From an uncultured Chloroflexia bacterium (lineage in GTDB: Bacteria; Chloroflexota; Anaerolineae; CG2-30-64-16), in the NCBI GenBank assembly GCA_963810095.1, contig CAWEMM010000001.1, positions 114,006-178,005 on the forward strand: a stretch of 64,000 bases of DNA, read 5' to 3'. The translations under genes and the position numbers were made by a program. The notes under the pieces were generated by a model that did no database searches, was not told where the DNA came from, and worked only from the letters and a program-made list of their open reading frames with translations. Shown in pieces: positions 23,137-55,500 of the stretch; position 1 is the stretch's first letter, and the number at the start of each line of letters is the position of its first letter.

Positions 23137-25926
23137 TTAGGCAGGCTCCGCGGCCGGCATCTCGGCCAGCGCGGCCAGAATCTTGGCCCGGGTCGCGGGC
23201 AGGGCAGTGATCCGGACGCCGATCGCATCGTAGATGGCGTTGGTGATGGCCGGCGCGACGTTGACCGTAGGTGCTTCCGAAAAGCCCTTTGCGCCGTACG
23301 GTCCGTCCGAGCACGGGATTTCCAGCACGACGGACACGACTTCGGGCGCCTGGTCCGCGGTCGGAATGCGGCACTTGTAGAGCGAATCGGTTAGGTTGAT
23401 GCCATTCTGGACGACAAAATCTTCCGAGAGTGCATAGCCCATCATCATGGCCACCGCGCCGTGAATCTGCCCCTCGATGGCCTTCGGGTTCAGCGCCTTG
23501 CCGACGTCGTACACGGCAATGTGCTTGAGAAGCCGAACGTCGCCCGTGCGTGTGTCAACCTCCACGATCGACACTGCCGTGCCAAAATCGTAGAGCCAGT
23601 TCGTCCGCCGCGACTCGAAATCCGGCGCGCCCCACCGGCTTTCGATATACAGGGGCTGAGGGTCGGTACTGGGCGTGTGGTAGCGAGCTTCGACGGCAAA
23701 CCGCTCGCCCAGTGCGGAGAGGGGCAGCGCTCGCCCGGTGCTTCTGTCGATCAGCCGCTCGTCGACCAGCCGGATGTCGTCCGGATCGGACCCCAACGCA
23801 TCGGCCGCCCGGTAGCAGAGTTGCTCACGGAGGTCGCGCGCGGCGCTGATGACTGCGTTGCCCATGATGAACGTCTGGCGGCTGCCCCCGGTGGGTCCGG
23901 CGCCGGGGCTGAGCTTCGTGTCGGGCAGGATAACTTCGATGCGATCGAGCGGCAGATCGAGCTCCTGCTGTACCAGCCCGGCCAGCACCGGGTTCGCCCC
24001 TTGCCCCATGTCGCAATACCCGGTCAGAACCTTGACGTAGCCCTGCGCGTTCATCTCGACGATGGCGCCTGCGCTCTCCGGGACATTCTTGCCGACGCCG
24101 ACGGTCTTCTGCATGCAGGCGACGCCCACGCCGATCCGCTTGCCCTCGCGCGGCTCCGGCACCACCGTCCGGCGAAGTTCCTCCTGCGCGGCACGGATCG
24201 TCTCTTTGATGGTGACGATGCCGGGCTCCTGGACGTGATCGACGACGTTGGGCAGGCCCACGTCCAGCGCGTTGAGGTAGCGGAACTCGAGGGGGTCCAT
24301 GTGCAGCTGGCGCGCCAGTTCGTCGAGCGCCGACTCGACCGCGAACGCAATCTTCGGCGCGCCGAAGCCGCGCATCGCACCGCCGATGACGTTGTTCGTG
24401 TACCAGACCTGCGCATGCAGGTCGAGGTTGGGGATAAAATAGGGGCCGGTGTTGGTGACGCAGCCCGACACAAGCACCGCCGCGCTGGAGGATGCGTACG
24501 CGCCGCCATCCAGTTGCACCTCGTCCTGCAGCGCGAGGATGCGGCCCGCCGCGTCGGCCCCGACCTTCAGGTGAATCCAGGACGCATGGCGCTTGCTGTG
24601 AACGATCAGCGACTCCTGCCGCGTCAGCGTGATCTTGACCGTGCGGCCCGTCCTCAGCGCGCCGAGCGCCAGAAAACGCTCGATCGCCACGTCCGTTTTG
24701 CCGCCGAAAGCGCCGCCCGCGGGAAGCTGCACCACCCGCACCTTTTCAACGGGCAGGTCAAGGATCGCGGCCAGTTCGCGGCGGGCATCCCAGGCCGCCT
24801 GGCACGCGATCCTGACCGTGATGCCGCCGTCTGGGTCTGGAATCCCCAGGCCCGATTCCGGCTCGATGAAGGCATGCTCGACGAAGGGCGTCGTGTAGTC
24901 GCGCTCGACGACGGCGGCGCAGGCAGCGAAGGCCTGCTCCACGTCTCCGCGCTTGACCTTCATCTCCTTGAGGAGGTTGCCGCCGGCGTGCACCTTGGGC
25001 GCGCTCGGAGCCGCGGCCTCGGCCGGCGAGTAGACGCCGGGCAGCACCCGGTACTCGACCCGGACCAGGTCGCGGGCATGTTCGGCGGCTTGCAGCGTCT
25101 CCGCAAAGACGACGGCGATCGCATCGCCAATATAACGCACGCGGTCGGTGGCGAACACCGGCTGATCGGCCACCACCAGGCCGAACACGTTGCGGCCCGG
25201 AACGTCGCGGGCCGTCAGGATGGTCACGACTCCGGGCACAAGCTCCGCATCCGACGTGTCGATGCTCAGGATTTCGGCACTCGGATGGTCTGCCCACCGA
25301 ATCTTGCCGTGGAGGAACTCGGCCGAGTAAATGTCGTCGGCGTATTGCGTCCGACCCGTCACCGCCTTCACTGCGTCCCGGCGAAGCACCGTGGCGTTGG
25401 CCGTCTCTGCGCCCGCAGGCATCGCAGTGCCGGCGCGCACGTACGGCGCGGCGTCCCGGATGGCCTTAAGGATGTTGATATATCCGGTGCAGCGGCACAG
25501 GTTGCGATTGGTGGTGAGGGTCTTGCGAATTTCCTGTTCCGTGGGATCCGGCTTGCCGGCGAGGAGGGCTTGCGCGGACATGATCATCCCGGGCGTGCAG
25601 AAGCCGCATTGCACGGCGTTGTTGGCGATGAAGGACTCCTGGAGCGGGTGGAGGTTGTCGTCTTGGCCCAATCCCTCAATCGTCAGCACACTCGCGCCGG
25701 CCAGTTTGCCCATCTTGAGCAGGCAGGCACGCTGAGCCTTGCCGTTGACGATGACCGTGCAGGCGCCGCAATGCCCCTCGGAACAGCCGTCTTTGGTTCC
25801 CATGAGGTGGAGGTAATCGCGGAGGAAACGCAGCAGCGTCAGCGCGGCGGGCACAGCAGCCGAAACGGCCGTACCGTTCACGAACAGATCGACCATCTGC
25901 AGGACGGGTTGCGGTTCGTCGGGCAT
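23137..25926 (-). CDS. Xanthine dehydrogenase/aldehyde oxidoreductase family protein with fused 2x[2Fe-2S] and molybdopterin domains
   Basis: GCSEGHCGAC..RAC, QCGFCTPG..CRCTGY, GGAFGGK, AMRGFG, GQIHG, AKGFSE (catalytic Glu); no FAD domain. Confidence 0.92.
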   Translation of the reverse strand: MPDEPQPVLQMVDLFVNGTAVSAAVPAALTLLRFLRDYLHLMGTKDGCSEGHCGACTVIVNGKAQRACLLKMGKLAGASVLTIEGLGQDDNLHPLQESFIANNAVQCGFCTPGMIMSAQALLAGKPDPTEQEIRKTLTTNRNLCRCTGYINILKAIRDAAPYVRAGTAMPAGAETANATVLRRDAVKAVTGRTQYADDIYSAEFLHGKIRWADHPSAEILSIDTSDAELVPGVVTILTARDVPGRNVFGLVVADQPVFATDRVRYIGDAIAVVFAETLQAAEHARDLVRVEYRVLPGVYSPAEAAAPSAPKVHAGGNLLKEMKVKRGDVEQAFAACAAVVERDYTTPFVEHAFIEPESGLGIPDPDGGITVRIACQAAWDARRELAAILDLPVEKVRVVQLPAGGAFGGKTDVAIERFLALGALRTGRTVKITLTRQESLIVHSKRHASWIHLKVGADAAGRILALQDEVQLDGGAYASSSAAVLVSGCVTNTGPYFIPNLDLHAQVWYTNNVIGGAMRGFGAPKIAFAVESALDELARQLHMDPLEFRYLNALDVGLPNVVDHVQEPGIVTIKETIRAAQEELRRTVVPEPREGKRIGVGVACMQKTVGVGKNVPESAGAIVEMNAQGYVKVLTGYCDMGQGANPVLAGLVQQELDLPLDRIEVILPDTKLSPGAGPTGGSRQTFIMGNAVISAARDLREQLCYRAADALGSDPDDIRLVDERLIDRSTGRALPLSALGERFAVEARYHTPSTDPQPLYIESRWGAPDFESRRTNWLYDFGTAVSIVEVDTRTGDVRLLKHIAVYDVGKALNPKAIEGQIHGAVAMMMGYALSEDFVVQNGINLTDSLYKCRIPTADQAPEVVSVVLEIPCSDGPYGAKGFSEAPTVNVAPAITNAIYDAIGVRITALPATRAKILAALAEMPAAEPA

Positions 25927-26046
25927 CCTTGTCCACCTCCGGCGAGGGCCTCGGTTCACCGGTCAACCAGCTGTTGATCCGTAAGGTCGTTGCTTGGCAG
26001 CAGAAAAGAGAGCAGGAGCTTGGTCCTCAGAGGACTGACAACGGCG

Positions 26047-26075
26047 ATAATAACGGATTTCACACTCCCTGTCAA
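26047..26075 (-). promoter_or_regulatory. Sigma70-like promoter of the molybdenum hydroxylase gene
   Basis: Minus strand TTGACA-17 nt-TATTAT. Confidence 0.6.
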
Positions 26076-26187
26076 TACCCAATTTACAAAACCGGAGCAA
26101 TGTCATTGTGTACATTACGGAGCTGTGGCATACTGAGTACCTGGCGGCCGTCGAGCGCCACCGCATCCGGTCAACACGGACAACGTC

Positions 26188-27365
26188 ATGGGCGACATCT
26201 TTCGAGACAACAGGCGCCTGTTTGTCTTCATCATCCTCTCCAACTTCCTGCTGAACTTCGGCTTCCAGGTCTGGCAAACGCTTTTCAACAATTACGCGGT
26301 CGACCAGCTTGGCATGGGCCCCGCGCAAATCGGCGTCATCCAGGCCGTGCGCGAAATCCCCGGGCTGCTGGGGTTCGCCATCGCGTTTCTCGCCCTGTTC
26401 ATCACCGAGTTTCGCATCATGACGCTGAGCGTCATCGTGCTCGGCATCGGGGTCGCGCTGACAGGCAAGGCCACGGGCTTCTCATCACTGATGATTACCA
26501 CCTTCGTGATGAGCCTGGGGTTTCATTTCTTCATGCCGAGCAGCAATTCGATTGTGCTGATGCTGATGAAGCAGGAGGACACGCCGAAGACGCTGGGCAA
26601 CCTGGGCAGCCTCGGCTCGCTGGCATCCGTGGCCGGCACCGGCGCAGTCCTGCTCTTCGCCGGCGCGCTGGGCTACGCCAACATGTTCATCTCGGTGGGC
26701 ATCCTGGTCGTCCTTGCCGGGCTGCTGCTTCTGCCCTTCGGCAACATCCGGAGCAACCTTCCTAAAGGGCGCAAGGCTCAGTGGCGCAAGCGGTATTGGC
26801 TCTACTACACGCTGTCGTTCCTGCTGGGCAGCCGGCGCCACATCTTCACCACCTTTGCGGTCCTGCTGCTCGTGCAGAAGTTCGGGGTCAGCGTGCAGAC
26901 CACCGCGCTGCTCTTCCTGGTAAACGGCATCATCAACGTGATCACACTGCGCTGGACGGGCCGGTTGGTTGGCGTCCTCGGCGAACGGCGGCCATGACGA
27001 TCACCTTTGCGTCCCTGGCATTGATCTTCCTCGGCTACGCTTATGTCAATTTCTTGCCTATGCTCTTCATCTTCTTCATCCTCGACAACATCTTCTTCGG
27101 CTTCAACGTCTCGCTGTCGAGCTACTTCCAGAAGATCGCGGTGTCAAAGGAAGAGGTGACGGCGAACGTCTCCACCCAGCAGTCGATCGAGCACATTGCA
27201 GCGATCACCGTGCCGCTCGTCGGGGGCACCGTTTGGGCCATCTACGGCAGTCAGGCGCCGTTCCTCTTCGGCGTGGTGATCGTGCTCATGGGGCTGGTGC
27301 TCGCGCAGTTCATGAACGTGAGGCCTGCGGCGGGAGCGCTGTCCGCGGCGCCCGTGCCCGAGTAA
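26188..27365 (+). CDS. MFS transporter (frameshift near 26990)
   Basis: About 12 TM segments across ORFs 26188..26997 and 26781..27365; REIPG and YWLYY..SFL.GSRRHIF motifs. Confidence 0.85.
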
Positions 27366-27483
27366 CCCCTGCCGGTTTGGCCGACCGAGGCGCTTTGCCG
27401 GGCACCGGTCGGTGCCGAATTGATCGAAGCCGCCCTGGTGCTAGAATCTCAGGCAGAAATCGATACAAAGGAGTGTCAAGGTC

Positions 27484-30400
27484 ATGCCCGAACAGGAGTA
27501 TTGGGATCGTTATCTGGGCGCCGATCTCGGCGTCGTCGATCCCGACATCGACGCAATTATCGACTTCGAGGAAGAGCGCCAGGCGCGCAAGCTCATCATG
27601 ATCCCCTCCGAGTCGATGGCCCCGCTAGCAGTCCGCCAGGCCCTCGGTTCCGTCTTCAACAACGTCTACGCCGAAGGCTACCCGCCCCTCCGCATGACAC
27701 GCGACGACGAAGACCTGCTGCTCGACTATCCCCACCAACTCGCCTATTACCGCCGCTACGCAGATCGCCGCTTCTATAAGGGCGTGGACTACGTCCACTT
27801 CGTGGAGACCCTGGCCCAGCGCCGGGCCGCGCTGATCTTCGCAAACGAGCGCGTGTCGGACAAGAACATCTACGTGAACGTCCAACCGCTTTCGGGCGCG
27901 GCCGCGAACCTGGCCGTGTACGATACGTTCCTGCAGACCGGCGACACGGTCATGGGCATGGACCTGTTTCAGGGCGGGCACCTGACCCACGGCAGCGAGT
28001 TTAACTTCTCGGGAAAGCGCTTCAAGGTCGCGTCGTATGGCGTGAGCAAGTCGACCGGCAAGCTCGACTACGACGAGATCCGCGAGCTGGCGCGGCAGCA
28101 CCGCCCCAAGATGATCATAGCGGGCTTCACGTCCTACACGTGGGCGCCAGACTGGCAGCTTTTCGCGGAGATCGCACACGAAGTGGGCGCGGTGCTGCTG
28201 GCGGATATCAGCCACCCGGCAGGCATGGCGACTGCAGGCGCATACCCAAACCCCATCGGCATCGCCGACGTGGTCACATGCACGACACACAAGACGCTGT
28301 GCGGCCCGCGTGGCGCGATCATCATGACAACTGACGAAGACCTGGCCAAGCGCATCGACATGGCGGTATTCCCCGGCGAGCAGGGTGGCCCGCACACGCA
28401 GAAGTTCGCGGCCATGGCCGTCGCATTCAAGATTGCGGGCACGACCGAGTACAAACGCATGATGCACGGGATCAAGGAGAACGCCGCGGCGTTGGCGGAT
28501 GGCCTGATCCGGCGCGGGCTGAAGCTGGCGTATGGCGGCACGGACACCCATTTCTGCATGCTGGACCTCAACAGCGTCAAGGCGAAAACGGGCTTTCCCC
28601 TGCGCGGCGAGCCCGCGGTCCGCATCCTGGACCTGGCGGGCATCGTGGCAAACAAGAACACCATCCCCGGCGACTCGCTCACCGCGCTGGCCATGGGCAT
28701 TCGCCTGGGTACGCCCTGGCTCACCCAACGTGGATTCGGGCCGGCCGAGATCGACCAGGTCGCGGAGCTGATCCACCGCACGGTGACGAGCATCCAGCCG
28801 TTCAGTTATACGGGCCTGTCGGGCGAGCTGCCCCGCGGGAAGATCGACCTGGACGTGTTCGAGGGGATCAAGCGCGAGGTGGCGGAACTGGCGGAGAGCG
28901 GCGCGGCGGAAACCTCCAGCCGGGGCTCCCAGTATCCCCACTATTACATGCTGCCCCCGGCGCCGGCTCAGACGGAGGCAGCCGAGGGCGGAACGCCGGA
29001 CCCGGTCGAACTGCAAGCGGCCCAGGCAGGCGCCGCCCTCCTCGACGTGCGCGCCTGCGGGCTGCTGCTCGTGTCAGGCGACCGGGCCGAGGCCGGGCTG
29101 AACCAGATCGTGACGGCCGACGTGCCCTGCCTGAAGCCGGGCCAGACCGTTCCCACGTTCATCCTGGACGCGGACGGGGCCGTGATGGACGACGTCTTCG
29201 TCATGCGCCTGCCCGCCGACGAATACGGGCGGCATCGCTTCATCCTGCGCACCCAGCCGGAAAACCACGAGCGCGTGAAGGCGTGGCTGCGGGGCCTGGG
29301 CGACGGATACATGCTGTTCGACCGGCACGACGTGTTCCGCAAGGTCGAGGGGCCGCTGGTGGTCGAAGACCTGCGGTACGAGAGCGCCGCCAAGGGCGGC
29401 GAGGGGAAGTACGTCGCGCTGGCGCTGCACGGTCCCAAGTCGCAGGAGATTGCGTCGAAGGCGCTGCCGGGAGCCGAGGGGGCTGGCGAAGGCGATGCGC
29501 TCCCGTCCGTCCTCGCATTTGCGCTTGGACCCGGGCATGTCGAGTTCGTGATAGCAGGGGACGGCGGCGATGCGATCGCGCGGCTCGCGGCCGCGGGTGC
29601 GACGCAGGCCGGGCCGGCCGCGCTTAGAGCGTTCCGCCAGGGATCGGGGCTTCCTGACTACGCGAAGGAGCGTCCGACGGGTGCAGAGGTATTGAGCCGG
29701 ACGCAGCCAATCCGCTTTGAGCTGTGCAAGCCATACATGGTGGGGCAGCAGGTTTTTGCAGGAGTCGGCGCGCGAAATGCCTCGCCGGCGCCCGCCTTCG
29801 AATGGCAGGAACCGGAAGGCGCGCCGCTCAAGCGCACCGCGCTGTACGAGTGGCACAAGGCACACACCCGGCACATCGTCCCGTTCGCGGGCTGGGAGAT
29901 GCCCGTGTGGTACACGGGCGTGCTCGACGAACACAACGCCGTGCGTAAAGCCGCCGGACTGTTCGACGTCTCGCACATGGGCGTCTTCGAGGCCACGGGC
30001 CCCCACGCCGAAGAGTTCCTCGACCTCGTGCTCAGCAACTACGTCCGCTGGTATGCGCCGGGCGAGAGCTTCTACTCCTACCTGCTCGACCAGGACGGCA
30101 ACGTCATCGACGATCTGCTGGTCTATCGCCGGGCGAAGGACAACTTCCAGATCGTCGTCAATGCGTCGAACGCGGACAAGGACTGGGCCTGGATCAACGC
30201 GGTCAACCGCGGCGAAGTCCTGCTCGATCGCAACCGGCCGGAACTGCGCGTGCTGCGGCCCGCCACCCTGCGCAACCTCAAGGACCCGTCGAGCGGGCCG
30301 GACAGGCGCGTCGATCTGGCGCTCCAGGGCCCTGCGTCGATGCGCATCCTGCAGAGCATGACGGAGGACCCCCGGCTGCAGGAGCGCATCGGCCGGCTCC

Positions 30401-31078
30401 CCCGTACCGGAGTGGACCACTGGCGGCTCGCGGGCTACGACCTGGTGGTGGCGCGCACGGGCTACACCGGGGAGGATGTAGGCTACGAGATTTTCGTCCA
30501 TCCGGATCGCGCCGTGGCCTTCTGGGAGGCGCTGCTCGAGGCGGGCAAGCCGTTCGGTCTGCAACCCACGGGCCTTGCCGCCCGCGACAGCACCCGCACC
30601 GAGGCAGGTCTGCCCCTCTACGGGCATGAGCTGGCGGGGCCGTTCAACATCTCGCCCGCGGGCGCGCGCTTCGCCGCTTACGTCAAGCTCCACAAGCCCT
30701 ACTTCGTGGGCCGGGATGCCTACCTCGCAAAGGAACGGGAACGGACGATGGAGGTGGCGCGCTTCCGCATGAACGACAAGGGCGTGCGCATGCCGAAGAC
30801 GGGCGATCCTGTGGTGAACAAGAAGGGCCAGGCGCTGGGCTGGGTGACGAGCGCGGCGGTGGACGTGGACGGGGTCATCTTGGGCCTCGCGTACATCCAG
30901 AGCCGGTATGCGAAGCCGGGCGAGGAAATCGGCATCTTCAACCTGCCGCAGAAGCCGCTGGTCGAGAAGGGCAACAAGGCCGAGCTGGCGCCGGGGGACA
31001 AGATCGCGCCTGTCCGACAGCGCGGTGCTGCTCCCCCGCTTCCCCGGCAAGGCCGAACGGGCCCACTGGCGGGGATAG
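27484..31078 (+). CDS. glyA-gcvT: Fusion protein: serine hydroxymethyltransferase (GlyA) + degenerate GcvT-like domain + aminomethyltransferase GcvT
   Basis: SHMT motifs YAEGYP, NVQPLSG, GGHLTHG, ADISH, TTHKTLCGPRG (PLP Lys270), NKNTIP, GIRLGTP. GcvT motifs RTALY..H, FAGWEMPV.Y, FDVSHMG, ARTGYTGE..YE, ARDS.RTEAG.PLYG.E. One continuous frame; a likely indel near 31010 puts the true stop at 31076-78 (ORF track ends 31182). Confidence 0.92.
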
Positions 31079-31084
31079 ACGCTA

Positions 31085-31180
31085 AACACAAAGACACGAA
31101 GACACGAAGGCTTACAAGAGCAAGAAACCCGGTTTCTGCGTGGAAACCGGGTTTCTTCTGTGCCTTGGTGTCTTTGTGTT
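31085..31180. repeat. REP-like inverted repeat, copy 2 of the AACACAAAGACAC family, with a nested palindrome
   Basis: Arms AACACAAAGACAC/GTGTCTTTGTGTT; inner AAGAAACCCGGTTTC-TGCGTG-GAAACCGGGTTTCTT at 31122-31157; lies between convergent genes. Confidence 0.8.
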
Positions 31181-31193
31181 GAAGTGCTCCCGC

Positions 31194-33053
31194 TTACGCG
31201 GCGGCTTCGGCCGCGATGCTGCGGGCCTTCCTGTCCTTCTTGCGGTCGTCGGTGCCGAGGATACGCTTGCGCATGCGGATGCTCTTCGGCGTGATCTCGA
31301 CCAACTCGTCGTCCGTGATGTACTCCAGGCAGTCGTCCAGCGACATATTAATGGGCGTCTCGAGGTGCACCAACTCGTCCCCGGCCGACGACCGGTGGTT
31401 GGTCAGGTGCTTCTTCTTGGTCACGCTCAGCACCAGGTCCTCTTCGGTCGGCCGGCGACCCACAATCATGCCCTCATAAACATCCACGCCGCCGCTAATG
31501 AACAGCTTGCCGCGCTCCTGCGCGTTGAACAGCGCGTAGTTCGTGCTCACGCCATTCTCCCAAGCCACCAGCGAACCGGTCTGTCGCGACTTGATCGTGC
31601 CCATGTACGGCTCGTACCCGCAGAAGATGCTGTGGATGATGCCCATCCCGCGCGTCGCCGTCAGGAACGACTGGCGGAACCCGAGCAGGCCCCGGGTTGG
31701 CACGAGGAAGGTGTAGTACACGGTACCGGAGGAGCCGTTGGAGCCCTGGTGCATGTTCGTCATCTGCCCCTTGCGCGGGCCGAGCATTTCGACGACGACG
31801 CCGGAGTACGGTTCGGGCACCTCAATATGGACTTCCTCCATGGGCTCCAGCTTCTCGCCGGTGTCCGGATCGTCATGCATGATGACCTCCGGCGCGCTGA
31901 CCTGGAACTCGTACCCCTCGCGACGCATCGTCTCGATCAGGATGGCCAAGTGCAACTCGCCGCGGCCGCTGACCAGGAACGTGTCCGCCGCATCCGTCGG
32001 CTCGACGCGCAGCGCCACGTCGCGCTCCACCGCCCGCTCGAGCCGCTCCTTGATCTTGCGGCTGGTGACCCAGGTGCCTTCACGGCCCGAGAAGGGCGAG
32101 GTGTTAACGCCGAAGGTCATGCGAACCGTGGGCTCTTCGACGGTAATGGTCGGCAGGGGCCGGGGATCGGCGGCATCGGCAATCGTCTCTCCGATATTGA
32201 TGTCGGGGACGCCCGTCATCGCAATAATCTCGCCTGCCTCGGCCTCCTGGACCTCCACGCGCTCCAGCCCCTCATAGATGAAGAGCTGGGCAATCTTCTC
32301 CTGGTGGATCTCGCCTTCGCGGTCGATACGCGCAATCGCTTGCGCCTTGCGCAGCGTGCCCGCATAAAGCCGGCCCATGATGATCTTGCCCTTGTAGTCG
32401 TCGTACGACAGGTTCGTGACGAGCATCTGGGCCAGCGCATCAGGATCGACATCCGGCGCAGGCAACGAGTTGACGATCGCGTCAAAAAGCGGCTTCAGGC
32501 TGGGTTCCAGGTGGTCCGGATCGGTGCCGGCCTGGCCGGACGTGGCAATGGAGTATATGACGGGGAACTCGGCCTGTTCTTCCGTCGCGCCCAGGTTAAT
32601 GAACAAGTCAAACGCCTCGTCGACCGCCCAAGCCGGCCGCGCATGGTTGCGGTCGACCTTGTTGATCACGAGGATCGCGCGGCGCCCCAACTCGAGGGCC
32701 TTGCGGAGCACGAACCGGGTCTGGGGCATGACGCCCTCGGCCGCATCGACCAGCAGCAGCACGCCGTCGACCATGTTCAGGACCCGCTCGACCTCGCCGC
32801 CGAAATCGGCGTGGCCGGGCGTGTCCACAATGTTGATCTTGATCCCGCCGTAGCGCACCGCGGTGTTCTTAGCCAGGATGGTGATGCCGCGTTCGCGTTC
32901 CAGGTCGTTCGAGTCCATCACACGCTCGGGAACGTTCTGGTTGTCGCGGAAAACACGCGACTGCTTAAGCATGGCATCGACCAGCGTGGTCTTGCCGTGA
33001 TCGACGTGCGCGATGATGGCGATGTTGCGGATGTCTTCTCGTTTGACCTGCAT
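31194..33053 (-). CDS. typA: Translational GTPase TypA/BipA
   Basis: [60 protein letters not shown]. Confidence 0.97.
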
Positions 33054-34729: not shown

Positions 34730-34774
34730 AATAGTTGGCCTCGGGCATCATTCTACCATGGAACCCGCATGCGA

Positions 34775-34894
34775 GGGCGAGGCAAACGGAGTACCGCGCA
34801 ACCGACGGGCACGGGCGAGGCAAACCGGGTTCGCCTCGCCCTCGTGCAGGTCGGACAAAAAGGACGAGGCATGACCTGCGTGCCTTGCGCCTAC
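34775..34894. repeat. Degenerate REP cluster upstream of the RAYT gene
   Basis: Repeated GGGCGAGGCA, its complement GCCTCGCCC, and TGCCTTGCGCCTAC. Confidence 0.6.
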
Positions 34895-34905
34895 AGGAGA
34901 CCAGA

Positions 34906-35415
34906 ATGGGCCATGACCCGCAAGGCCATCACCGACAGTCAATCCGTCTGCCAGGATACGACTACCGGCAGGCGGGCTGGTATTTTGTGACTCTCGTGAC
35001 GGTGAGACGGGACTGCCTCTTCCTTCGCAATGATATGCGGGAGGCTGCGGAAGGACTGTTCGTCGCGCTTCCGGATCATTTCCCCCGCCTCAAAATCGAC
35101 GAGTGGGTCTTGATGCCGAACCAACTGCACGCGATCCTCGTGTTGACAGGCTCACCCGATCCGGAAGAGGTGTGCACGCCTTCGGGTGGGGTAAGTTCGG
35201 GTTCGCTCGGCGCAGTCATCGGCAACTACAAATCCGTCTCGACACGCCGGCTCAACCGGGTAATGGGAGGATTCGCGGGAAGGCAGATTTGGCAGCGGGG
35301 CTATTACGAACACATCATCCGGTCGGAGATCGAGCTCTCTGCGATACGGGAGTACATACGTCGAAACCCCGCCAACTGGGAGCTCGATGCGGAGTACAGC
35401 ACGCATGCTCTGTAG
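34906..35415 (+). mobile_element. REP-associated tyrosine transposase (RAYT, Y1/IS200-like)
   Basis: HRQSIRLPGYDY...YFVT, MPNQLH (HUH position), IIGNYKS-like VIGNYKS, WQRGYYEHIIR, YIRRNP..W; flanked by REPs. Confidence 0.88.
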
Positions 35416-35550: not shown

Positions 35551-37009
35551 TTAGTTACAGCCCGGCGCGTAGCAGAGCTGCATTTCCTTGGCGGCCCGCA
35601 CCTCGTCCAGCCGCTTGACCGGTGCGCTATGCGGTGCGGTCTTCAGCAGCTCGGGCGTCTCGCGAGCCTCCTGCGCGATCTGGATCATCGCGTCGCAGAA
35701 CGCGTCGAGCGTCTCCTTGCTCTCCGTCTCGGTCGGCTCGATCATGATCGCTTCCGGAACGATGAGCGGGAAGTACACAGTCGGCGGGTGGAAGTCGTAG
35801 TCCATCAGCCGCTTCGCGATGTCCATCGTGTTGATCCCCGGCGCGCCCTCCAGCTTGCCCTGCGCGACGAACTCGTGCATGCACGTCCGGTCGCCGTGCG
35901 GGATCGGGTACACCCCTCGCAGCCGCGCCTGGATGTAGTTCGCGTTCAGCACCGCGTTCTCGCTGATGGCCCGGCAGCCCTTCCGCCCCGTGCATCCGGA
36001 TGTACGTGTACGCCCGGACGAGGACCCCGAAATTACCCCAGAACGCCTTGACCCGACCAATGCTCTTCTCGGGCATGCACCACTCGAAGGTGTCGTACTC
36101 GGTCTTGCCAACGATGGGGCCGGGCAGATAGTCGACCAGGTGCGCCGCGGCGCCTACCGCACCCGAACCCGGCCCACCGCCGCCATGCGGCGTCGAGAAG
36201 GTCTTGTGCAGGTTGTAGTGCATCACGTCGAACCCGACCTGGCCGGGCTTGGCGATGCCCAAGATCGCGTTGAAGTTAGCGCCGTCGCCGTAGCACAGGC
36301 CGCCCGCCTCGTGGACCAGGCGGATCACCTCTGTCACATGCTCGTCGAACAGGCCCAGCGTGTTCGGATTGGTCAGCATGAGGCCGACGAGATTGGGGCC
36401 ATGCTTGGCGATCAAGGCCTTGAGCGCGTCCAGGTCAACGTTGCCCTGCGCGTCCGAGGGCACCTCGACCACCTTCAGACCTGACATACTCGTCGTCGCG
36501 GGGTTCGTGCCGTGCGCGGAGTCGGGCACGAGGATCACGTCGCGCTGCGTCTCGCCCTTGTCGTACAGGTACTTGCGCATGATCAGCACGCCGGTCAGCT
36601 CGCCGTGCGCGCCGGCCGCGGGCTGGAGCGTGACCGCGGCGAAGCCGGCAATCTCGGCCAGCAGCGCCTGCAGGTTGTACATGAGCGCCATCGCGCCCTG
36701 CACCGTCTCAGGGTCCTGCAGCGGATGGAGCGCGGCGAAGCCGGCCATCCGGGCGGCATACTCGTTCACCTTCGGGTTGTACTTCATGGTACATGACCCG
36801 AGCGGGTAAAAACCGGTGTCGATCGAGTAATTCATCTGGCTGAGCCGGGTATAATGGCGCACCAGGTCGACCTCGGACACCTCGGGCAGCGGCAGTTCCC
36901 CGCGGAGCGCCTCTTGCGGCAGCGGTGATTCCGGGACGTCGACATCCGGCAGGTGGACGGCTTTGCGGCCCGCACGGCAGATTTCGTAAATCAGCGGCTC
37001 AGCCATCAC
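35551..37009 (-). CDS. gcvPB: Glycine dehydrogenase subunit 2 (frameshift near 35970)
   Basis: [50 protein letters not shown]; C-terminus [15 protein letters not shown] in ORF 35551..36111. Confidence 0.95.
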
Positions 37010-38415
37010 GCCACCTCCTCTATGTCGTCCAATTGGTCTTGTCCTTCCAGGTCTTCCTCGAAGGGGGACGCGATGTCGGCGAGGGCCTCGGCCAGCGCTT
37101 CGATCTCGGCCCGGCTGTTCATCTCGGTCACGCAGACGAGCATGTGGTCCTTCAACTCAGGGTAGTCTGCGCCCAGGTCGTAGCCGCCCAGGATGCCCCA
37201 CTCGTCCAGCAGCCGCTCGTTGATCTCGGCCACGGGCAGCGGGCACTGGACCACGAACTCCTTGAAGAACGGGCCGTCCGATTTAACCGCGTACTGGTCG
37301 AGCTTGTCGATCAAGCTGGCCGCATAGTGCGCCTTGTGGTACGACAACTCGGCGGCCTTCTTGAGCCCGTGCTTGCCCATCGCGGCCATGTAGACCCCGG
37401 CGGCGAGCGCGTTAAGCGCCTGGTTGGAGCAGATGTTGCTCGACGCCTTCTCACGACGGATGTGCTGCTCGCGGGTGCTGAGCGTGAGCACGTAACCCCG
37501 CTCGTCGTCCACGTCGACCGTCTGGCCGACGATGCGGCCGGCGGACTTGCGCACCTCATCCTTGTTCATCGAGAAGAAGCCGACGTAGGGGCCGCCGAAA
37601 CTGGGGGCGTTGCCCATCGGCTGCGCTTCGCCGCACGCCACGTCTGCGCCGTACTCGCCGGGTGGGGTGAAGAGCCCGAGGCTGATCGGATCGCAGGCGA
37701 CGATGAAGAGTGCGCCGGCAGCATGGACCTTGTCGGCCAGCGCCTGCATCTCGGACGGCAGGTAGAGCCGGCCCAGAAAGTCGGGGTTCTGGACGATGAC
37801 GCATGCAGCGTTCTTGTCCACCAAGCCGGCCAGGGCGTTCAAGTCGCCCAGCGGCGCGTTCTCGCCCACAGTGGAGATGCTCATGCCCTGGGTATAGGTG
37901 TGCACGACCTCCCGGTACTGTGGGTGCAGCGTCGGGCTGAGGATCACGTTGCAGCGCTTGTAGCGGCCGACCTGCAGCGCCATAATGACCGCCTCGGCCA
38001 CCGCAGTTGCACCGTCGTAGTGCGACACGTTCGAGACTTCCATGCCCGTAAGCGCGGTGATCATGGATTGGTACTCGAAGTGCGCCTGCAGTGTGCCCTG
38101 GCTGATTTCGGGCTGGTAGGGCGTGTATGCGGTGTAGAACTCGCCGCGCGAGATGATGCTGTCCACGACCTTGGGCACGAAATGGTTGTACGCACCCGCA
38201 CCGAGGAAGCACGCCAGGTGGTTGAGGTCATCGTTCTCGTCCGCCAGCGCCTGCAACTCCTGCAGCATCTCCATTTCGGTGAGCGCGGAGGGCAGGTCGA
38301 GTTTCGGGAAGCGGAACTCTTCCGGCACGTCGCGGAACAGGTCTGCCACCGTCTCGACGCCCACGACCTTCAGCATGGCGGCGCGGTCGGCGTCAGTATT
38401 CGGTATGTAATCCAT
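37006..38415 (-). CDS. gcvPA: Glycine dehydrogenase subunit 1
   Basis: [43 protein letters not shown]. Confidence 0.96.
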
Positions 38416-38822
38416 TAGTGTCCGCCTTTTTCTTCCTCTTCCTGCACAAAGGCCTCGTAGGCGGTCGCGTCCATCAGGCCGTCGAGTTGGCCCGCGTCGC
38501 TGGCAGTGATCTTAACCAGCCACGCCTTGCCGTAGGGGTCCTCGTTTACCCACTCGGGGTTGTCTTCGAGCTCGGTGTTGACCTCGGTAACCTCGCCCGT
38601 GATGGGGGCCAGCACGTCTTCGGCGGCCTTGACCGACTCGACCGTGCCCATGGCCTCGGCAGAATTAACCGTGTCGCCCACCTCGGGCAACTCGACATAG
38701 ACGACGTCCGAGAGCAGATGCTGAGCGTAGTCGGACACGCCGATCACAGCAACGTCGCCCTCCACACGCACCCACTCGTGCGTCTTCGCGTACCGGGCCT
38801 TGGCGTCGAACTTGTAAGCCAT
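38415..38822 (-). CDS. gcvH: Glycine cleavage system H protein
   Basis: YAKTHEW, GVSDYAQ, VESVKAA (lipoyl Lys), VNEDPYG; AGGAGG RBS. Confidence 0.96.
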   Translation of the reverse strand: MAYKFDAKARYAKTHEWVRVEGDVAVIGVSDYAQHLLSDVVYVELPEVGDTVNSAEAMGTVESVKAAEDVLAPITGEVTEVNTELEDNPEWVNEDPYGKAWLVKITASDAGQLDGLMDATAYEAFVQEEEEKGGH

Positions 38823-38909: not shown

Positions 38910-38959
38910 AAACAAAGAGACGGAAGCAACGGGCAAAGGACTGCCCGGCTTCCGTCTCT
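38910..38959 (-). terminator. Intrinsic terminator forming the riboswitch expression platform
   Basis: Minus strand AGAGACGGAAGC..CGGGCA..TGCCCG..GCTTCCGTCTCT then TTGTTT; its 5' arm overlaps P1 of aptamer 2, consistent with an ON switch. Confidence 0.75.
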
Positions 38960-39185
38960 GTCTGGTGACCTGAGAGATTGCCCACGTCGGCTTGCCCCGT
39001 CGGTGGTGGTTTCGCCGATCAGGCGAAACACGCTTTCCAGAGTGCTGTCCCAGTGCGATGTGGTGACCTGAGAGATTAACCCGCGCGGCCCGGCGACCTG
39101 GCAGGCGTGCCCCTTCGGTGGTAGTCGTCGTGGTAGTTGACCGGCGCGCCGGTCAACTACCACGACGCACGCTCTCTCGCCCTGT
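38955..39185 (-). ncRNA. Tandem glycine riboswitch
   Basis: Minus strand GAGAG..CACCGAAGGGGCA..AATCTCTCAGGT, then CTCTGGAAAG..CACCGACGGGGCAA..AATCTCTCAGGT..GACAGAG; upstream of gcvH. Confidence 0.93.
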
Positions 39186-40900: not shown

Positions 40901-41860
40901 ATGCGCATCGCGGTGATGGGGACGGGCGGGGTCGGCGGCTACTTCGGCGGGCTGCTGGCAAAGAGCGGGGCCGACGTCACCTTCGTTGCGCGCGGGGCGC
41001 ACCTGCAGGCGCTGCAGCGCGACGGTCTGCACGTCCAAAGCGTGCACGGCGACTTTGCGCTCCCCCGTGTGCAGGCCACGGATCAGCCTCAGGCGGTGGG
41101 CCCGGTCGACCTCGTGATCTTCGCGACCAAGACATTCCAGCTCGACGCGGCGGCTGAGGCAATGAAGCCCCTGCTAAGTCCCGAGACCGTCGTCCTGCCG
41201 CTGCATAACGGCGTGGACGCGGCCGAACGCACGGCCGCGATTGTCGGGGAAAGCCATGTGTTGGGTGGCCTGTGCTACGTCGGCAGCATGGTCGCCGGCC
41301 CGGGCCTGATCCGTCAGGAGAGCCAGTTTCGTCGGGTGGTCCTGGGCGAGATGCCCTGGAGCGCCGCCCGGGGAACGATCACGCCGCGGGTGCGAGACGT
41401 GGCCGCGCTGCTTGCGGCCGCGGGCGCGGTGGCCGAGCCCGTAACCGACATCCAGTCGGCACGCTGGACCAAGTTTGCGTTCATCGCCCCGCTCAGCGGG
41501 GTGGGCGCGGTCGCCCGTGTCCCGGCCGGCGAGATCAACGCGACGCCCGAAACCCGACAACTGCTCCGTGCGGCCATTGCCGAGGTCGTGGCAGTGGCCG
41601 CGGCAGAGGGTGTGCCCCTGCCCGGCGAACCGTCGAAAACGATGGCCTTCTGCGACGCACTCGCGCCGCACATCACCGCGTCGATGCAGCGAGACGTCCT
41701 CGACGGCAAACCTTCGGAACTTGAGTCGCTCATAGGCGTCGTCGTCCGCAAGGGCAACGCAGCCGGGGTGCCCGTGCCCGCGTTCGAGTACTTCTACGCG
41801 GCGCTGCTGCCCCAGGAACGCGCGGCCCGGCTGGCAGCGGCGCGGGAACTGAAGGGCTAG
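40901..41860 (+). CDS. panE: 2-dehydropantoate 2-reductase (ketopantoate reductase family)
   Basis: GTGGVGGYFG, ARGAHL, HNGV, WTKF, SMQRD..GKPSE. Confidence 0.88.
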   Translation: MRIAVMGTGGVGGYFGGLLAKSGADVTFVARGAHLQALQRDGLHVQSVHGDFALPRVQATDQPQAVGPVDLVIFATKTFQLDAAAEAMKPLLSPETVVLPLHNGVDAAERTAAIVGESHVLGGLCYVGSMVAGPGLIRQESQFRRVVLGEMPWSAARGTITPRVRDVAALLAAAGAVAEPVTDIQSARWTKFAFIAPLSGVGAVARVPAGEINATPETRQLLRAAIAEVVAVAAAEGVPLPGEPSKTMAFCDALAPHITASMQRDVLDGKPSELESLIGVVVRKGNAAGVPVPAFEYFYAALLPQERAARLAAARELKG

Positions 41861-44156: not shown

Positions 44157-44211
44157 GGGGAATATCGTACCATAAGGTCATCCGCGGCCGAATTATGGTA
44201 TGATTATCCCC

Positions 44212-45479
44212 ATGAGCCAGCCGCCCTCACCCAGCCTTCCTGCCGAACGCCTGGCCCTGCTCGCCCGCCTGGCCCAGCAGTTCAACTCGTCCCTCGACCT
44301 CAACGAGGTGCTCAGCCGCGTCATGGACGAGGTCATTGCCGCCGTCCGCGCCGAGCGCGGGTTCGTCATGCTTCACGATGACGACGGCCGGCTGTTGTTC
44401 CAGGTGGCCCGCAATATGGATCAGAGCACGATCGACGAGCCGGGCTTCCAGGTCTCCCGCGGGGTGATCGAGCGGGTCGCGGCCGAGGGCCGCACGCTGC
44501 TGTCTTCCGACGCGCAGCACGACGATCGTTTCTCCATGCGGCAGTCGGTCGTCTCGCTCGGCCTGCGCTCCATCCTGTGCGCCCCGCTGATCGTGCGCGA
44601 TCAGACGACCGGCGTCATCTACGTCGACAGCCGGCTGCAAGCGGGCATCTTCACCCCGGACGATCGCGAGCTGCTCACGGGCATTGCCTCCAGCGCAGCG
44701 ATCGCGATCGAGAACGCCCGGCTGTACCAGGCCGCGGTCGAGAAGGGCCGCCTCGAACGCGAGCTCCAGATGGCGCGCGACCTGCAGGCCGGGCTGCTGC
44801 CTCACGACGTGCCCGTCCTGCCGGGCTGGGAATTTGCGTCCAAGTGGCAGCCCGCCGCGAGGTAGCCGGCGACTTCTTCGACTTCATCCGTCTCGGGAAA
44901 GGCCGCACGGGCGCACTCGTCGCCGACGTGGCAGACAAAGGCATGGCGGCTGCGCTCTTCATGGCGCTCTCCCGCAGCATCCTCCGCGCGAGCCTTGTCA
45001 ATGCCGATTCGCCCGCCGGCGGCGTAGCGTCGGCAAACCGCCTGATCTGCGAGGACGCCACCGGTGGCATGTTCGTGACCCTGTTCTATGCGGAGGTCGA
45101 CGAAGAGGGCGCCCTGACTTATGTCAACGCGGGACATAACCCGGCATATCTTGTGCGTGCGACCGGCTTCTGTGAGGAACTGCTGCCGACCGGCCCGCTG
45201 CTCGGCTTCAGCGACGGCGCATCGTTCCGACAGGCCCGGGTGCAACTCGCTTCCGGCGACTTCGTACTACTCTATACGGATGGCGTCACCGAAGCGGTTT
45301 CGGGCGTGGACGCAAGCGATTTCTACGGCGACGACCGGCTGCGCAGCCTGCTCGACGGACAGCGGGGGGCCTCGGCCGCGGATACCTTGCAGGCGCTCAC
45401 CACGGCCCTCGCGGACTTCATCGGGCCGACCCCGCCGTTTGACGACGTGACTGTCGTGGGGATCAAGAGAGTGGCATGA
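44212..45479 (+). CDS. GAF + SpoIIE/PP2C phosphatase, RsbU-like (frameshift near 44860)
   Basis: GAF (RSILCAPL..IYVD..AIAIENARLY), ERELQMAR.LQ; EVAGDFFD, ADVADKG, NAGH, YTDGVTE, DDVT. Confidence 0.9.
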
Positions 45480-53967: not shown

Positions 53968-54037
53968 AAGCACCTCCTGCGAACGAATTACATAATAGCA
54001 CACGGAAGGGTGGGGCGCAAGGCATTTGAAGGAGAAA

Positions 54038-55500
54038 TGATATCGTTCAGTGATAGTGTCAGTAGATAAGTGATCAGTGAAAATGTCAGTCATGGAAGAG
54101 AGACTGACATTGTCGAGCAAAGAACTGAAGCGACTAAGGTGCTGGAATTGGTCGAGGCTGAGCAAGATGACGGTGGCTCGAGGCGGCGGACTGCTGGGGT
54201 CAGCGAGCGGCAATGCTGGCGGCTGCTGGCCCGCTACCGGGAGGATGGGGCGGCGGGGTTGGTGCATGGCAATCGCGGGACCGGCCATCGCAGCCACCGG
54301 CTTGCCCGAAGTCGTGCGGCCGCGAGATCCTGACACTGGCGGAAGGCGTCTGTCGGGACTACAACGATCAGCACCTGACGGAAGTGCTGCAGGAGGAACA
54401 CGGCCTGCAGGTGTCGCGGGCCAGTGTGCGGCGCATCCGGCGTGCAGCGGGTCTGGCCAGTCCGCACAAGTACCGGCGGCGCAAGGGCCACCTCCGCCGC
54501 GAGCGTTACCCGCAGGCCGGCATGCTGTTCCAGATCGACGCATCGCACCATGCCTGGCTTGAAGACCGCGGTCCACAACTGGCCCTGGTGGCGGCGATTG
54601 ACGATGCGACCAACCAGGTAGTAGGGGCGCTGTTTCGGGAGCATGAAGATGCGGCCGGCTACTTCCTCTTGCTCCAGGACATCGCCCAGCGTGTGGGTCT
54701 GCCGCTCGCCTTGTACGCCGATCGCCACACGATCTTCCAAAGCCCGAGCAAACCTACGATCGAGCAGGAATTGGCCGGTATCAGCCCGCAGAGCCAATTC
54801 GGTCAGCTCACCAGCCGCCTGGGTATCAGACTGATCGCCGCCCATTCCCCGCAAGCCAAGGGCCGCATTGAACGTCTGTGGGGCACTTGCAGGATCGCCT
54901 GGTCAAGGAACTGCGCCAGGCCGGGGCCAGCTACGCTGGACGAGGCGAACCAGGTGCTGACCACCTATCTCGCCAAACACAACCAGCGCTTCGCAATTAG
55001 CGCCGAGCAGCCCGGCTCCGCCTGTCAGCCCCTACCCCAGGACAGCCACCTTGACCGGCTGTTCAGCTTCCACTACACCCGCCGTGTCGCCAATGACCAT
55101 ATGATCTCGCTCGACTCACCAAGGCTTGCAACTACCACCCGCCCCCAACGGCCGCAGTTATGCCCGCGCCACCGTCGATCTGTACCACGCCATGGATGGC
55201 CGGCTCACCGTCGCTTATCAGGGCCACGACTTGATCACCTTCCTCCCCGCCGTCGCCGGTCCGCCGCGCGTCGAAGTCTTTTGTCCACAAACCCTGCCCC
55301 ACCATACCTCAGTCAAAGCCGGCGGAGCCGGTAAAGCTTCCGCAACCCGAGCCGGTCCGGCAAACAGCCAAGCCTGCCCCCGATCATCCCTGGCGCAAGA
55401 TCGATTCAGCGCGATGCCGAGCGCCACCGCCAAGCCCAAGTGGCCCCACCCTGACATTTTCACTGATCGCGTAACCTGACCGATTTACTGATCATTGACA
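54038..55500 (+). mobile_element. IS1202-like (ISNCY/IS481-related) insertion sequence with a 17-bp target duplication
   Basis: Flanks GGCATTTGAAGGAGAAA (54021-37) and GGCATTTGAACGAGAAA (55501-17); subterminal IR GATCAGTGAAAATGTCAG/CTGACATTTTCACTGATC. Confidence 0.88.
54092..55440 (+). pseudogene. DDE transposase of the IS1202-like element, with several frameshifts
   Basis: HGNRG, QIDASHH.W, IDDAT, YADRHTIF, SPQAKGRIERLWGT spread over several frames. Confidence 0.85.

Follow-up and report, generated by a model that had tools for sequence, protein, structure and literature searches.

Serine hydroxymethyltransferase joined to a T-protein through a degenerate GcvT duplicate in a single gene of an Anaerolineae bacterium

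A 64,000-nucleotide stretch of DNA from an uncultured Chloroflexia bacterium of the class Anaerolineae (assembly GCA_963810095.1, contig CAWEMM010000001.1, positions 114,006 to 178,005; hereafter the window) contains a gene that joins serine hydroxymethyltransferase (SHMT), a truncated and degenerate duplicate of the glycine cleavage T-protein (GcvT) and a complete GcvT in one reading frame. We refer to the duplicate as T' and to the complete domain as T. On the evidence presented here we consider it probable that the product is a bifunctional enzyme, an SHMT and a T-protein in one chain, in which T serves the GcvH/P system and T' acts as a non-catalytic adaptor. One-carbon (C1) units enter folate metabolism by two main routes, SHMT and the glycine cleavage system, which jointly interconvert glycine and serine. 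Plant photorespiration and the reductive glycine pathway are settings in which the two work in functional coupling, and a direct hand-over of 5,10-methylene-tetrahydrofolate (CH2-THF; THF, tetrahydrofolate) between them is debated.

Each module belongs to a known family, and their combination with a degenerate duplicate is not described in the literature that we found. Full-text searches, with subscription journals outside their coverage, returned no description of an SHMT-T'-T fusion. A fusion of SHMT with T-protein is absent from the accessible part of PMC6451014, and in the accessible part of PMC13013030 the word channelling, for the glycine decarboxylase complex and SHMT, occurs solely in the reference list. 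The fusion appears to be unstudied. New here are a pair of fused paralogues, a count across the class, the repeated loss of the middle of T', a series of naturally split forms and a frameshift at the 3' end of the gene.

Results

One reading frame encodes three modules

Because Pfam and NCBIfam place an SHMT, a partial GCV_T and a GcvT in one frame, the three-part SHMT-T'-GcvT architecture is real. A preliminary description of this DNA had proposed this layout, and the Pfam scan, the NCBIfam models and a scan of the middle piece by itself all bear it out; the boundaries it gave (SHMT to about residue 485, GcvT from about residue 782) match the alignments. The SHMT family PF00464 matches at E = 1.6e-114 (383.1 bits vs a cut-off of 27), and GCV_T matches at E = 5e-93 (311.5 bits vs 25.6) in two stretches, the best being residues 787-1053. 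When residues 486-782 were scanned separately, they matched positions 32-160 of the 255 in the GCV_T profile PF01571 (E = 7.1e-19, 68.5 bits). The parts of the gene are as follows.

27484..31182, + strand: fusion open reading frame (ORF) as assembled, ATG start, 1232 aa
27484..28893, + strand: SHMT domain, residues 1-470 (Pfam, NCBIfam, alignment to 2dkj)
28894..29001, + strand: Pro/Ala-rich linker, residues 471-506, poorly conserved (column conservation, AlphaFold)
29002..29763, + strand: T', truncated degenerate GcvT duplicate (domains 1+2), residues 507-760 (Pfam, hhalign, Foldseek, conservation)
29764..29826, + strand: second linker, residues 761-781 (alignment, AlphaFold model)
29827..31008, + strand: complete GcvT (T-protein) domain, residues 782-1175 in the assembled frame (Pfam, NCBIfam, alignment to 1yx2)

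With the frame intact, the protein would be about 1,197 residues long. The first linker (residues 471-506) has a column conservation of 0.29, no secondary structure and a predicted local distance difference test score (pLDDT) of 61-71 in the AlphaFold model.

Both catalytic modules retain their active-site residues

The N-terminal module passes the SHMT model NF000586 (409.5 vs a curated cut-off of 335) and aligns to T. thermophilus SHMT (2dkj) at E = 3.5e-98; it scores 306.5 vs a cut-off of 735 with the PRK13580 equivalog NF010094 and is therefore not of that SHMT subtype. In all 61 aligned homologues the same residues are found at K270 (TTHKT), at G164, G165, H166, L167, H169 and G170 (GGHLTHG), and at N390, N392 and R407. 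K270 is the lysine of TTHKTL that had been pointed out earlier as the pyridoxal phosphate (PLP) lysine, and we take it to form the Schiff base with PLP; the GGHLTHG loop, NKN and the arginine of GIRxGTP are presumably the folate- and substrate-site motifs of SHMT. Two additional segments are also conserved: an insertion of about 25 residues (71-95; 27694-27768), in which R90, R91, Y92, D94, R95 and R96 are invariant, and a C-terminal beta-hairpin/helix extension of about 35 residues (438-472; 28795-28899) with a conserved P439...K453. Because the active sites of SHMT form at the interface between the two subunits of a dimer, the fusion protein is presumably at least a dimer.

The C-terminal module passes the GcvT equivalog TIGR00528 (287.8 vs 235.85) and NF001567 (321.5 vs 300), both of which span residues 782-1149. 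M832, D877, Y994, E1002 and R1034, each invariant in 61 of 61 homologues, correspond to M56, D101, Y197, E204 and R233 of human GcvT, the human residues having been mapped by motif and offset via the alignment to B. subtilis 1yx2 and not by direct alignment to 1wsv. According to PMC9551070, M56, D101, Y197 and E204 are THF contacts of human GcvT that are invariant in the family, R233 is specific to GcvT and D101 is catalytic. Since every catalytic and folate residue that was checked in SHMT and T is kept, both modules look catalytically competent, and the earlier statement that both are complete agrees with their predicted catalytic residues. Models of related enzymes fall far below their thresholds (SoxA, 157 vs 1164; trimethylamine N-oxide (TMAO) demethylase, 186 vs 1100; DmdA, far below its cut-off), and Pfam finds no flavin amine-oxidase domain in the fusion protein. 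In the region of the C-terminal barrel, the full-length GcvT models reach residue 1149, AlphaFold places beta-strands at 1089-1139 and the ...LPRF end lies in the +1 frame.

The middle domain is a degenerate duplicate of T

Residues 23-275 of T' align with residues 34-301 of the 394 in T (hhalign probability 100%, E = 2.7e-42, 26% identity). On the basis of this profile alignment we read T' as an internal duplicate of the folate-binding domains 1+2 of T, one that lacks both the N-terminal ~33 residues of T and the barrel at its C-terminus. AlphaFold models T' alone with a pLDDT of 92.0 and a predicted template-modelling score (pTM) of 0.90, and the best Foldseek match of that model is 1yx2 (E = 6.2e-16, template-modelling score 0.65). 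There are 56 structural matches at E <= 1e-3; all of those listed have the GcvT fold, and T-proteins rank first. The profile alignment with the protein's own T domain and the match to 1yx2 confirm what had been suspected of the middle domain, namely that it is GcvT-like.

T' exists in a long form of about 250-270 residues and a short form of about 170-200 residues, represented in the alignment by 39 and 22 sequences. Most of the canonical THF contacts have changed or gone. The M56 equivalent is variable in both forms; the D101 equivalent is aspartate in 38 of the 39 long forms, and in the 22 short forms it is aspartate in 8 and glutamate in 9. At the Y197 position the long forms have phenylalanine, leucine or other residues, E204 is still glutamate in 23 of 39 and R233 arginine in 17 of 39; the short forms have lost the Y197 and E204 positions altogether (22/22) and mostly that of R233. 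Conservation is likewise uneven: the N-half (residues ~516-630) scores 0.62 vs 0.72-0.76 for the catalytic domains, the middle (residues ~631-735) 0.20 and the C-tail FxLxKPYFVGQ 0.59. The N-half carries an invariant motif, W601...D607-G-Y609..F612...G623-P624. These patterns in the sequence make it probable that T' serves as an adaptor and has no catalytic role.

In a tree computed from the SHMT and T columns, long forms are scattered among short ones, and the variable part of T' has therefore been lost many times; the same scatter rules out a division of long and short T' into two clades. A stand-alone pseudo-T family was considered and rejected, the 13 short matches (proteins below 677 aa) falling into clusters of one or two fragment-like sequences.

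The fusion is conserved and widespread in the class

A protein search limited to lengths of 677-2156 aa scored 8000 candidates, of which 6006 had E <= 1e-3. All 120 homologues listed carry PF00464 and PF01571 and are 1092-1263 aa long, the best being 86% identical. Species-representative genomes contain at least 593 related stretches, 80 of which were kept as loci for the counts given here. By their titles, 71 of the 80 belong to Anaerolineae or Chloroflexota, and the remaining 9 carry the names Myxococcota, Planctomycetota/Pirellulales, Thermodesulfobacteriota, 'Proteobacteria' or Ca. Fraserbacteria. One open frame covers the whole match in 74 of the 80 loci, at full length in 63, and homologues therefore share the architecture with no stop and restart between the domains, the outcome on which the preliminary description had made its case depend. 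Of the remaining six, three show a frame change (L025, L034, L072), one is a fragment (L060) and two stand out solely because the locus contains a second match elsewhere (L028, L070). The conserved single frame, in homologues and in these 74 loci, also rules out that the fusion arose by misassembly or as a chimera. In databases the protein is called 'glycine cleavage system T protein', 'GcvT' or 'glycine hydroxymethyltransferase', mostly 'GcvT'; similar fusions had been expected among annotated Chloroflexota proteins, and they are indeed there, under the first two of these labels.

We surveyed the class in 60 other genomes that are at least 90% complete, taking all SHMT matches at E <= 1e-40. 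Fused-type SHMT was found in 40 of the 60 and canonical stand-alone glyA in 26: 33 genomes have the fused type without canonical glyA, 19 have canonical glyA alone, 7 have both and 1 has neither. Fused-type matches run from about position 48-55 of the profile to 399, 40 of the 44 lying in open frames no shorter than 987 aa, and canonical glyA matches cover the full profile in frames of 414-585 aa. A larger sample of 291 genomes with a match, classed by E-value alone, divides into 145 fused-type, 140 canonical and 6 fragmentary. One genome (G071) has two fused-type SHMT matches about 5 kb apart on its contig 64 (146652-153306), in frames of 1076 and 1106 aa, which may be tandem paralogues.

Split forms occur naturally

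Family f4 of the same class contains both arrangements. One of its genomes (G133) has a 1195-aa fusion. In two genomes of one genus (G052 and G166), two adjacent genes are present, the first encoding SHMT and the N-half of T' (SHMT-T'N; 612 and 620 aa) and the second an ordinary GcvT; the first gene ends just past WLRALSDGYVIFDD...PGPV and the GcvT begins M..LKRT. In two genomes of another genus (G003 and G095) a 591-aa SHMT-T'N and GcvT lie on different contigs. These observations come from loci L097, L098, L099 and L100 (genomes G003, G052 and G166) and also from G095. As the split forms keep SHMT and T'N together, the N-half of T' goes with the SHMT module, and as split and fused forms occur in one family, the covalent link to T can be undone in the course of evolution.

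SHMT-T'N proteins are not confined to these genomes: at least 55 clusters (586-649 aa, 60-100% identity, full coverage) are annotated simply as SHMT, several of them on contigs that exceed 100 kb. In one such protein (P0140), the ~95 residues at the C-terminus (523-616) match the N-half of T' with a probability of 98.2% (hhalign, E = 6e-14).

The genome has a second fused paralogue and a gcv operon lacking gcvT

In the assembly to which the window belongs (6.13 Mb, 16 contigs, 88.5% complete), the only SHMT matches are two fused frames, and the only GCV_T matches are the same two frames and a protein of 337 aa, which scores above the cut-off of the YgfZ model (69.9 vs 49) and fails the GcvT models. 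These SHMT and GCV_T profile searches of the 88.5% complete assembly returned no ordinary glyA or gcvT, whose presence would have spoken against the case made in the preliminary description. In this assembly the fused genes take the place of the two separate ones.

The second frame is a fused SHMT-T'-T paralogue on contig 12 (425937-428768, minus strand; locus L096, 9551-12862). It is about 1080 aa long and 45-47% identical, keeps all catalytic motifs and has a short T' with SE in place of the DD motif. Its neighbours, an uninformative set, are parts of an energy-coupling factor (ECF)-type transporter, a PfkB kinase, an M24 peptidase and a two-component system. Of 31 genomes in the family, 18 have two full GCV_T matches, each in a frame of 1000 aa or more, from which we conclude that a pair of long and short paralogues is the rule there.

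About 4.5 kb downstream of the fusion gene lies an operon with the following features and with no gcvT alongside.

38948..39050, - strand: glycine riboswitch aptamer ahead of gcvH (RF00504, 45.5 bits vs a gathering score of 32)
38415..38822, - strand: gcvH, H-protein, with ESVKA motif (profile search)
37006..38415, - strand: gcvPA, P-protein subunit 1 (GDC-P, E = 4e-122)
35627..37009, - strand: gcvPB, P-protein subunit 2 (profile search)

We take ESVKA to be the lipoyl-lysine motif of GcvH. One aptamer is reported for the riboswitch. gcvH-PA-PB also lies within the locus in 14 of the 80 related loci. In three of them (L026, L066, L082) it begins about 80-140 nt downstream of the fusion, on the same strand, an arrangement that puts the fusion in the position of gcvT.

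Three more GCV_H-like matches occur in the genome, on contigs 8 (104447-104788), 9 (627447-627794) and 12 (41055-41333), one of them with an in-frame TGA. Elsewhere in the window, a 226-aa ORF between fpg and gcvPB (34735-35412, + strand) has a weak IS200-like (Y1_Tnp) match in its C-terminal 54 residues and may be a transposase remnant. A 992-aa ORF at 51601-54576 (- strand) has no Pfam match at E <= 1e-6 and may be spurious in such G+C-rich DNA.

The ends of the gene

Upstream of the start codon are two elements that may serve expression.

27420..27447, + strand: promoter-like TTGATC-16-TAGAAT with TG (consensus scan, 2 sites vs 0.5 expected in shuffles; weak)
27468..27473, + strand: Shine-Dalgarno-like AAGGAG, 11 nt 5' of the ATG (sequence inspection)

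No Rfam element, riboswitch included, reaches its gathering score ahead of the fusion gene, and a relaxed Rfam scan of 25800-27600 gave only a chance-level snoRNA match (E = 0.32). The 3' end is more complex.

31009, + strand: extra C relative to the closest relatives, frame shifted (DNA alignment)
31010..31078, + strand: last 22 codons of the T domain and TAG stop, in the +1 frame (comparison with the C-termini of homologues P0003-P0012)
31093..31180, strand not assigned: long hairpin between the fusion gene and convergent typA (folding vs shuffles)
31197..33053: typA, convergent with the fusion gene

Alignment of the DNA with the two closest loci places one extra base in ATCGCGCCTGTCC at about 31009. 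Read in the +1 frame, the sequence continues as LSDSAVLLPRFPGKAERAHWRG-stop and ends at 31078 with the C-terminus of the homologues (conserved ...LPRF...). Because the extra base shifts the frame, the assembled ORF runs on from residue 1175 to 31182 with an unrelated tail; its last ~57 residues have no match, and homologues span just 95% of the query. The preliminary description had ended the gene at 31078, which is the true stop but is reached solely across a frameshift that it did not mention. The spurious tail passes through the hairpin, which is 88 nt long and near-perfect (-55.1 kcal/mol, z = -8.7; 0 of 200 shuffles equal it) and is a probable bidirectional terminator. The 20-mer core of the hairpin is unique in the genome, and contigs from other metagenomes show loose ends and indels at 31123-31160.

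Since the tail crosses this hairpin and further genes in the window are likewise divided between frames, we read the insertion as, in all likelihood, an indel of the assembly. The gene of a major facilitator superfamily (MFS) transporter on the 5' side of the fusion (26125-27347, + strand) is one of these: a 411-aa ORF of locus L016 aligns to it in two frames, through residues 1-287 and 281-408, which points to an indel-prone assembly. At 44200-45476 (+ strand) a GAF ORF overlaps a SpoIIE phosphatase ORF that lies in another frame; the two are probably one gene with a frameshift. The ORF at 46006-47889 (+ strand) begins in the middle of a protein-kinase domain (profile positions 164-260), suggesting another break. 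Contigs of four public runs, at 88% likeness, give patchy cover by relatives; none bridges 31009 and one ends at 31006. No RNA run is listed among those that share sequence with the region.

Discussion

Altogether, our results favor a model in which the fusion protein combines an SHMT with a T-protein that works with the GcvH and GcvP encoded nearby. According to this model, the N-terminal module would be a working SHMT (Ser + THF <-> Gly + 5,10-CH2-THF), and T would act as a T-protein, releasing NH3 from the aminomethyl group on lipoyl-GcvH and forming CH2-THF. When glycine is abundant, T would serve the riboswitch-controlled GcvH/P, and the SHMT module would use the resulting CH2-THF to convert a second glycine to serine. 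With P, H and L the sum would be 2 Gly + NAD+ + H2O -> Ser + CO2 + NH4+ + NADH, the THF being regenerated within the one polypeptide. The SHMT half would otherwise supply housekeeping C1 units, since searches of the genome turned up no SHMT of another type. We envision that T' arose by duplication of the T module and has since lost the N-terminal ~33 residues, the barrel and most folate contacts, its conserved N-half becoming structurally part of the SHMT module and its short C-tail leading into T. That the N-half is well conserved and is kept with SHMT in the split forms supports a role for T' as an adaptor. We infer the SHMT activity, the T activity, the dependence on H-protein and the adaptor role from the residues and domains that the sequence preserves.

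A model of the whole chain is consistent with this picture. AlphaFold, given residues 1-1175 and 61 aligned sequences, returned a pLDDT of 88.4 and a pTM of 0.87, with low confidence solely in the linker at 481-506, a few loops and the last ~25 residues. So high a pTM for three domains suggests that they have a defined mutual arrangement in the predicted structure. When SHMT and T were submitted as separate chains, the complex-prediction scores were 0.02 and 0.01 (mark 0.32), a result that counts neither for nor against contact.

Several observations weigh against the bifunctional-enzyme model or limit it. The pTM belongs to a model of the monomer, and the predicted arrangement may ignore the dimerisation of SHMT. 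The C-terminal barrel of T scores 19.9 bits with PF08669, below the cut-off of 25.9. With the D101 equivalent retained, T' may have some residual folate-related role. In this genome the fusion gene has no riboswitch and lies outside the gcvH operon. A stand-alone glyA or gcvT may still exist in the missing part of the genome, which is 88.5% complete, and 5 of the 31 genomes of its own family have a stand-alone-type GcvT beside the fusions. Fusion is not obligatory either, given the conserved split forms in one family of the class. Finally, the public runs do not cover 31009, no run containing more than 18% of the sampled words across 28900-31200, and if the insertion is real, this copy lacks the ...LPRF... 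C-terminus and could be impaired.

The last point leads to an alternative in which this copy is decaying: the insertion would be real, 57 unrelated residues would replace the conserved 22-residue C-terminus, and the paralogue on contig 12 would carry the function. The insertion does stand in the assembly, where no public run confirms or corrects the base, and the genome does contain a second, intact fused paralogue. However, the remaining 1175 codons are uninterrupted, 86% identical to the nearest homologue and in possession of all invariant residues; other genes of the window are split between frames, as expected from an indel-prone assembly; and 18 of the 31 family genomes retain both paralogues, each in a frame of 1000 aa or more. 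We consider decay quite improbable. We give even less credence to the idea that T is independent of H-protein and traps formaldehyde or an iminium from the SHMT site, as the folate domains of dimethylglycine oxidase and sarcosine oxidase do, which would make for a new combined activity. GcvT-fold domains from other fusions are among the family matches of T and the structural matches of T', and in fusions of the dimethylglycine oxidase or sarcosine oxidase type the GcvT-fold domain traps formaldehyde or iminium. Yet the SHMT module here retains its own folate-site motifs, T scores above the cut-off of the GcvT equivalog and far below those of the TMAO-demethylase, SoxA and DmdA models, the GcvT-specific arginine (the R233 equivalent) is invariant, the fusion takes the place of gcvT before gcvH-PA-PB in several relatives, and the genome has gcvH and gcvP with no other T-protein found. 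Together these make such an activity hardly credible.

True channelling, which the preliminary description had put forward as a possibility, would extend the bifunctional-enzyme model and is compatible with it. The folate sites would be held in a fixed geometry, CH2-THF and THF, probably polyglutamylated, would pass between T and SHMT and bypass the bulk pool, and T' could be a folate or polyglutamate anchor or a wall of the tunnel. The product of one site is the substrate of the other, the fusion is ancient and widespread, and the full-length pTM of 0.87 suggests a rigid predicted arrangement. T' keeps the GcvT fold and, in 38 of 39 long forms, the D101-equivalent aspartate, and among its structural matches are dimethylglycine oxidase and sarcosine oxidase, fused GcvT-fold enzymes that channel an intermediate to bound folate. 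Against this, of the five canonical THF contacts three or four are missing from T', and the sub-region that bears the Y197 and E204 equivalents has been deleted in all 22 short forms, repeatedly in evolution. The SHMT-T' linker of about 35 residues is poorly conserved and modelled with low confidence, and the split forms are conserved; since two genomes have SHMT-T'N and GcvT on different contigs, covalent linkage is not essential. On balance we think channelling in this strict sense unlikely. We also put forward, tentatively and with more doubt than conviction, that T' could be the docking module of a glycine-to-serine 'metabolon', its N-half belonging to the body of SHMT and, jointly with the C-tail, holding T fixed while a polyglutamylated folate shuttles between the two sites and stays on the enzyme, with the T'N of split forms still recruiting free GcvT non-covalently. 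If this is true, the family forms a natural series of fused, adjacent and unlinked enzymes for gauging what covalent linkage adds to folate hand-over.

A natural covalent SHMT-T enzyme with split relatives makes the question of hand-over testable by ordinary enzymology and structural work, and the SHMT-adaptor-T design could guide engineered modules for the reductive glycine pathway. The findings also bear on genome annotation. Canonical glyA is absent from about half of the sampled Anaerolineae genomes, and because it is absent and the fused gene is mostly named just 'GcvT', automated reconstructions can mis-score serine, glycine and C1 metabolism. The organisms mis-scored in this way are abundant bacteria of sediments and digesters.

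Comparison with known systems

The SHMT module shares with GlyA (PF00464; NF000586; 2dkj and E. coli 1dfo) the PLP fold and the TTHKT, GGHLTHG, NKN and GIRxGTP motifs. It differs in the ~25-residue insertion, which follows AEGYP, in the ~35-residue C-terminal extension, in a Pfam score of about 380 bits vs 450-580 for the listed stand-alone glyA of the class, and in being covalently continued by T' and T. Close counterparts are the long SHMTs (SHMT-T'N) in metagenome-assembled genomes of Thermoflexales and Anaerolineae, which have the same type of SHMT and the same N-half of T' but stop right after the WLRxLSDGYxIFD...GPV motif, GcvT being a separate gene.

T resembles GcvT proteins (TIGR00528; 1yx2, T. 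maritima 1woo, E. coli 3a8i, human 1wsv) in passing the equivalog cut-off and in its five invariant THF and catalytic residues; gcvH and gcvP are present, and in some relatives the fusion holds the gcvT position of the operon. Unlike the free protein of about 365 aa, T is the C-terminus of a chain of about 1,200 aa, and it has an insertion of about 20-30 residues after the WAW...N helix (the 1yx2 alignment breaks at residues 142-160).

T' is reminiscent of YgfZ/Iba57 (1vly, 1nrk, 7z3h), which are among its structural matches. Both keep the GcvT fold and the D101-equivalent aspartate and have lost other THF contacts, those of YgfZ/Iba57 as described in PMC9551070. T', however, has neither the KGCYTGQE cysteine motif nor the C-terminal domain, and it was not found free.

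Precedents for the covalent joining of a GcvT-type folate module to a C1 enzyme are dimethylglycine oxidase (1pj5/1pj6), sarcosine oxidase alpha (1vrq/2gag), dimethylglycine dehydrogenase (4pab) and TMAO demethylase (9q59). Such fusions are structural matches of T' and weak family matches of T. Their partner is a flavin oxidase or demethylase, whereas here it is an SHMT with its own folate site. The folate domains of the dimethylglycine oxidase type trap iminium or formaldehyde independently of H-protein; the T of the SHMT fusion, by contrast, looks from its conserved residues like a genuine H-protein-dependent GcvT.

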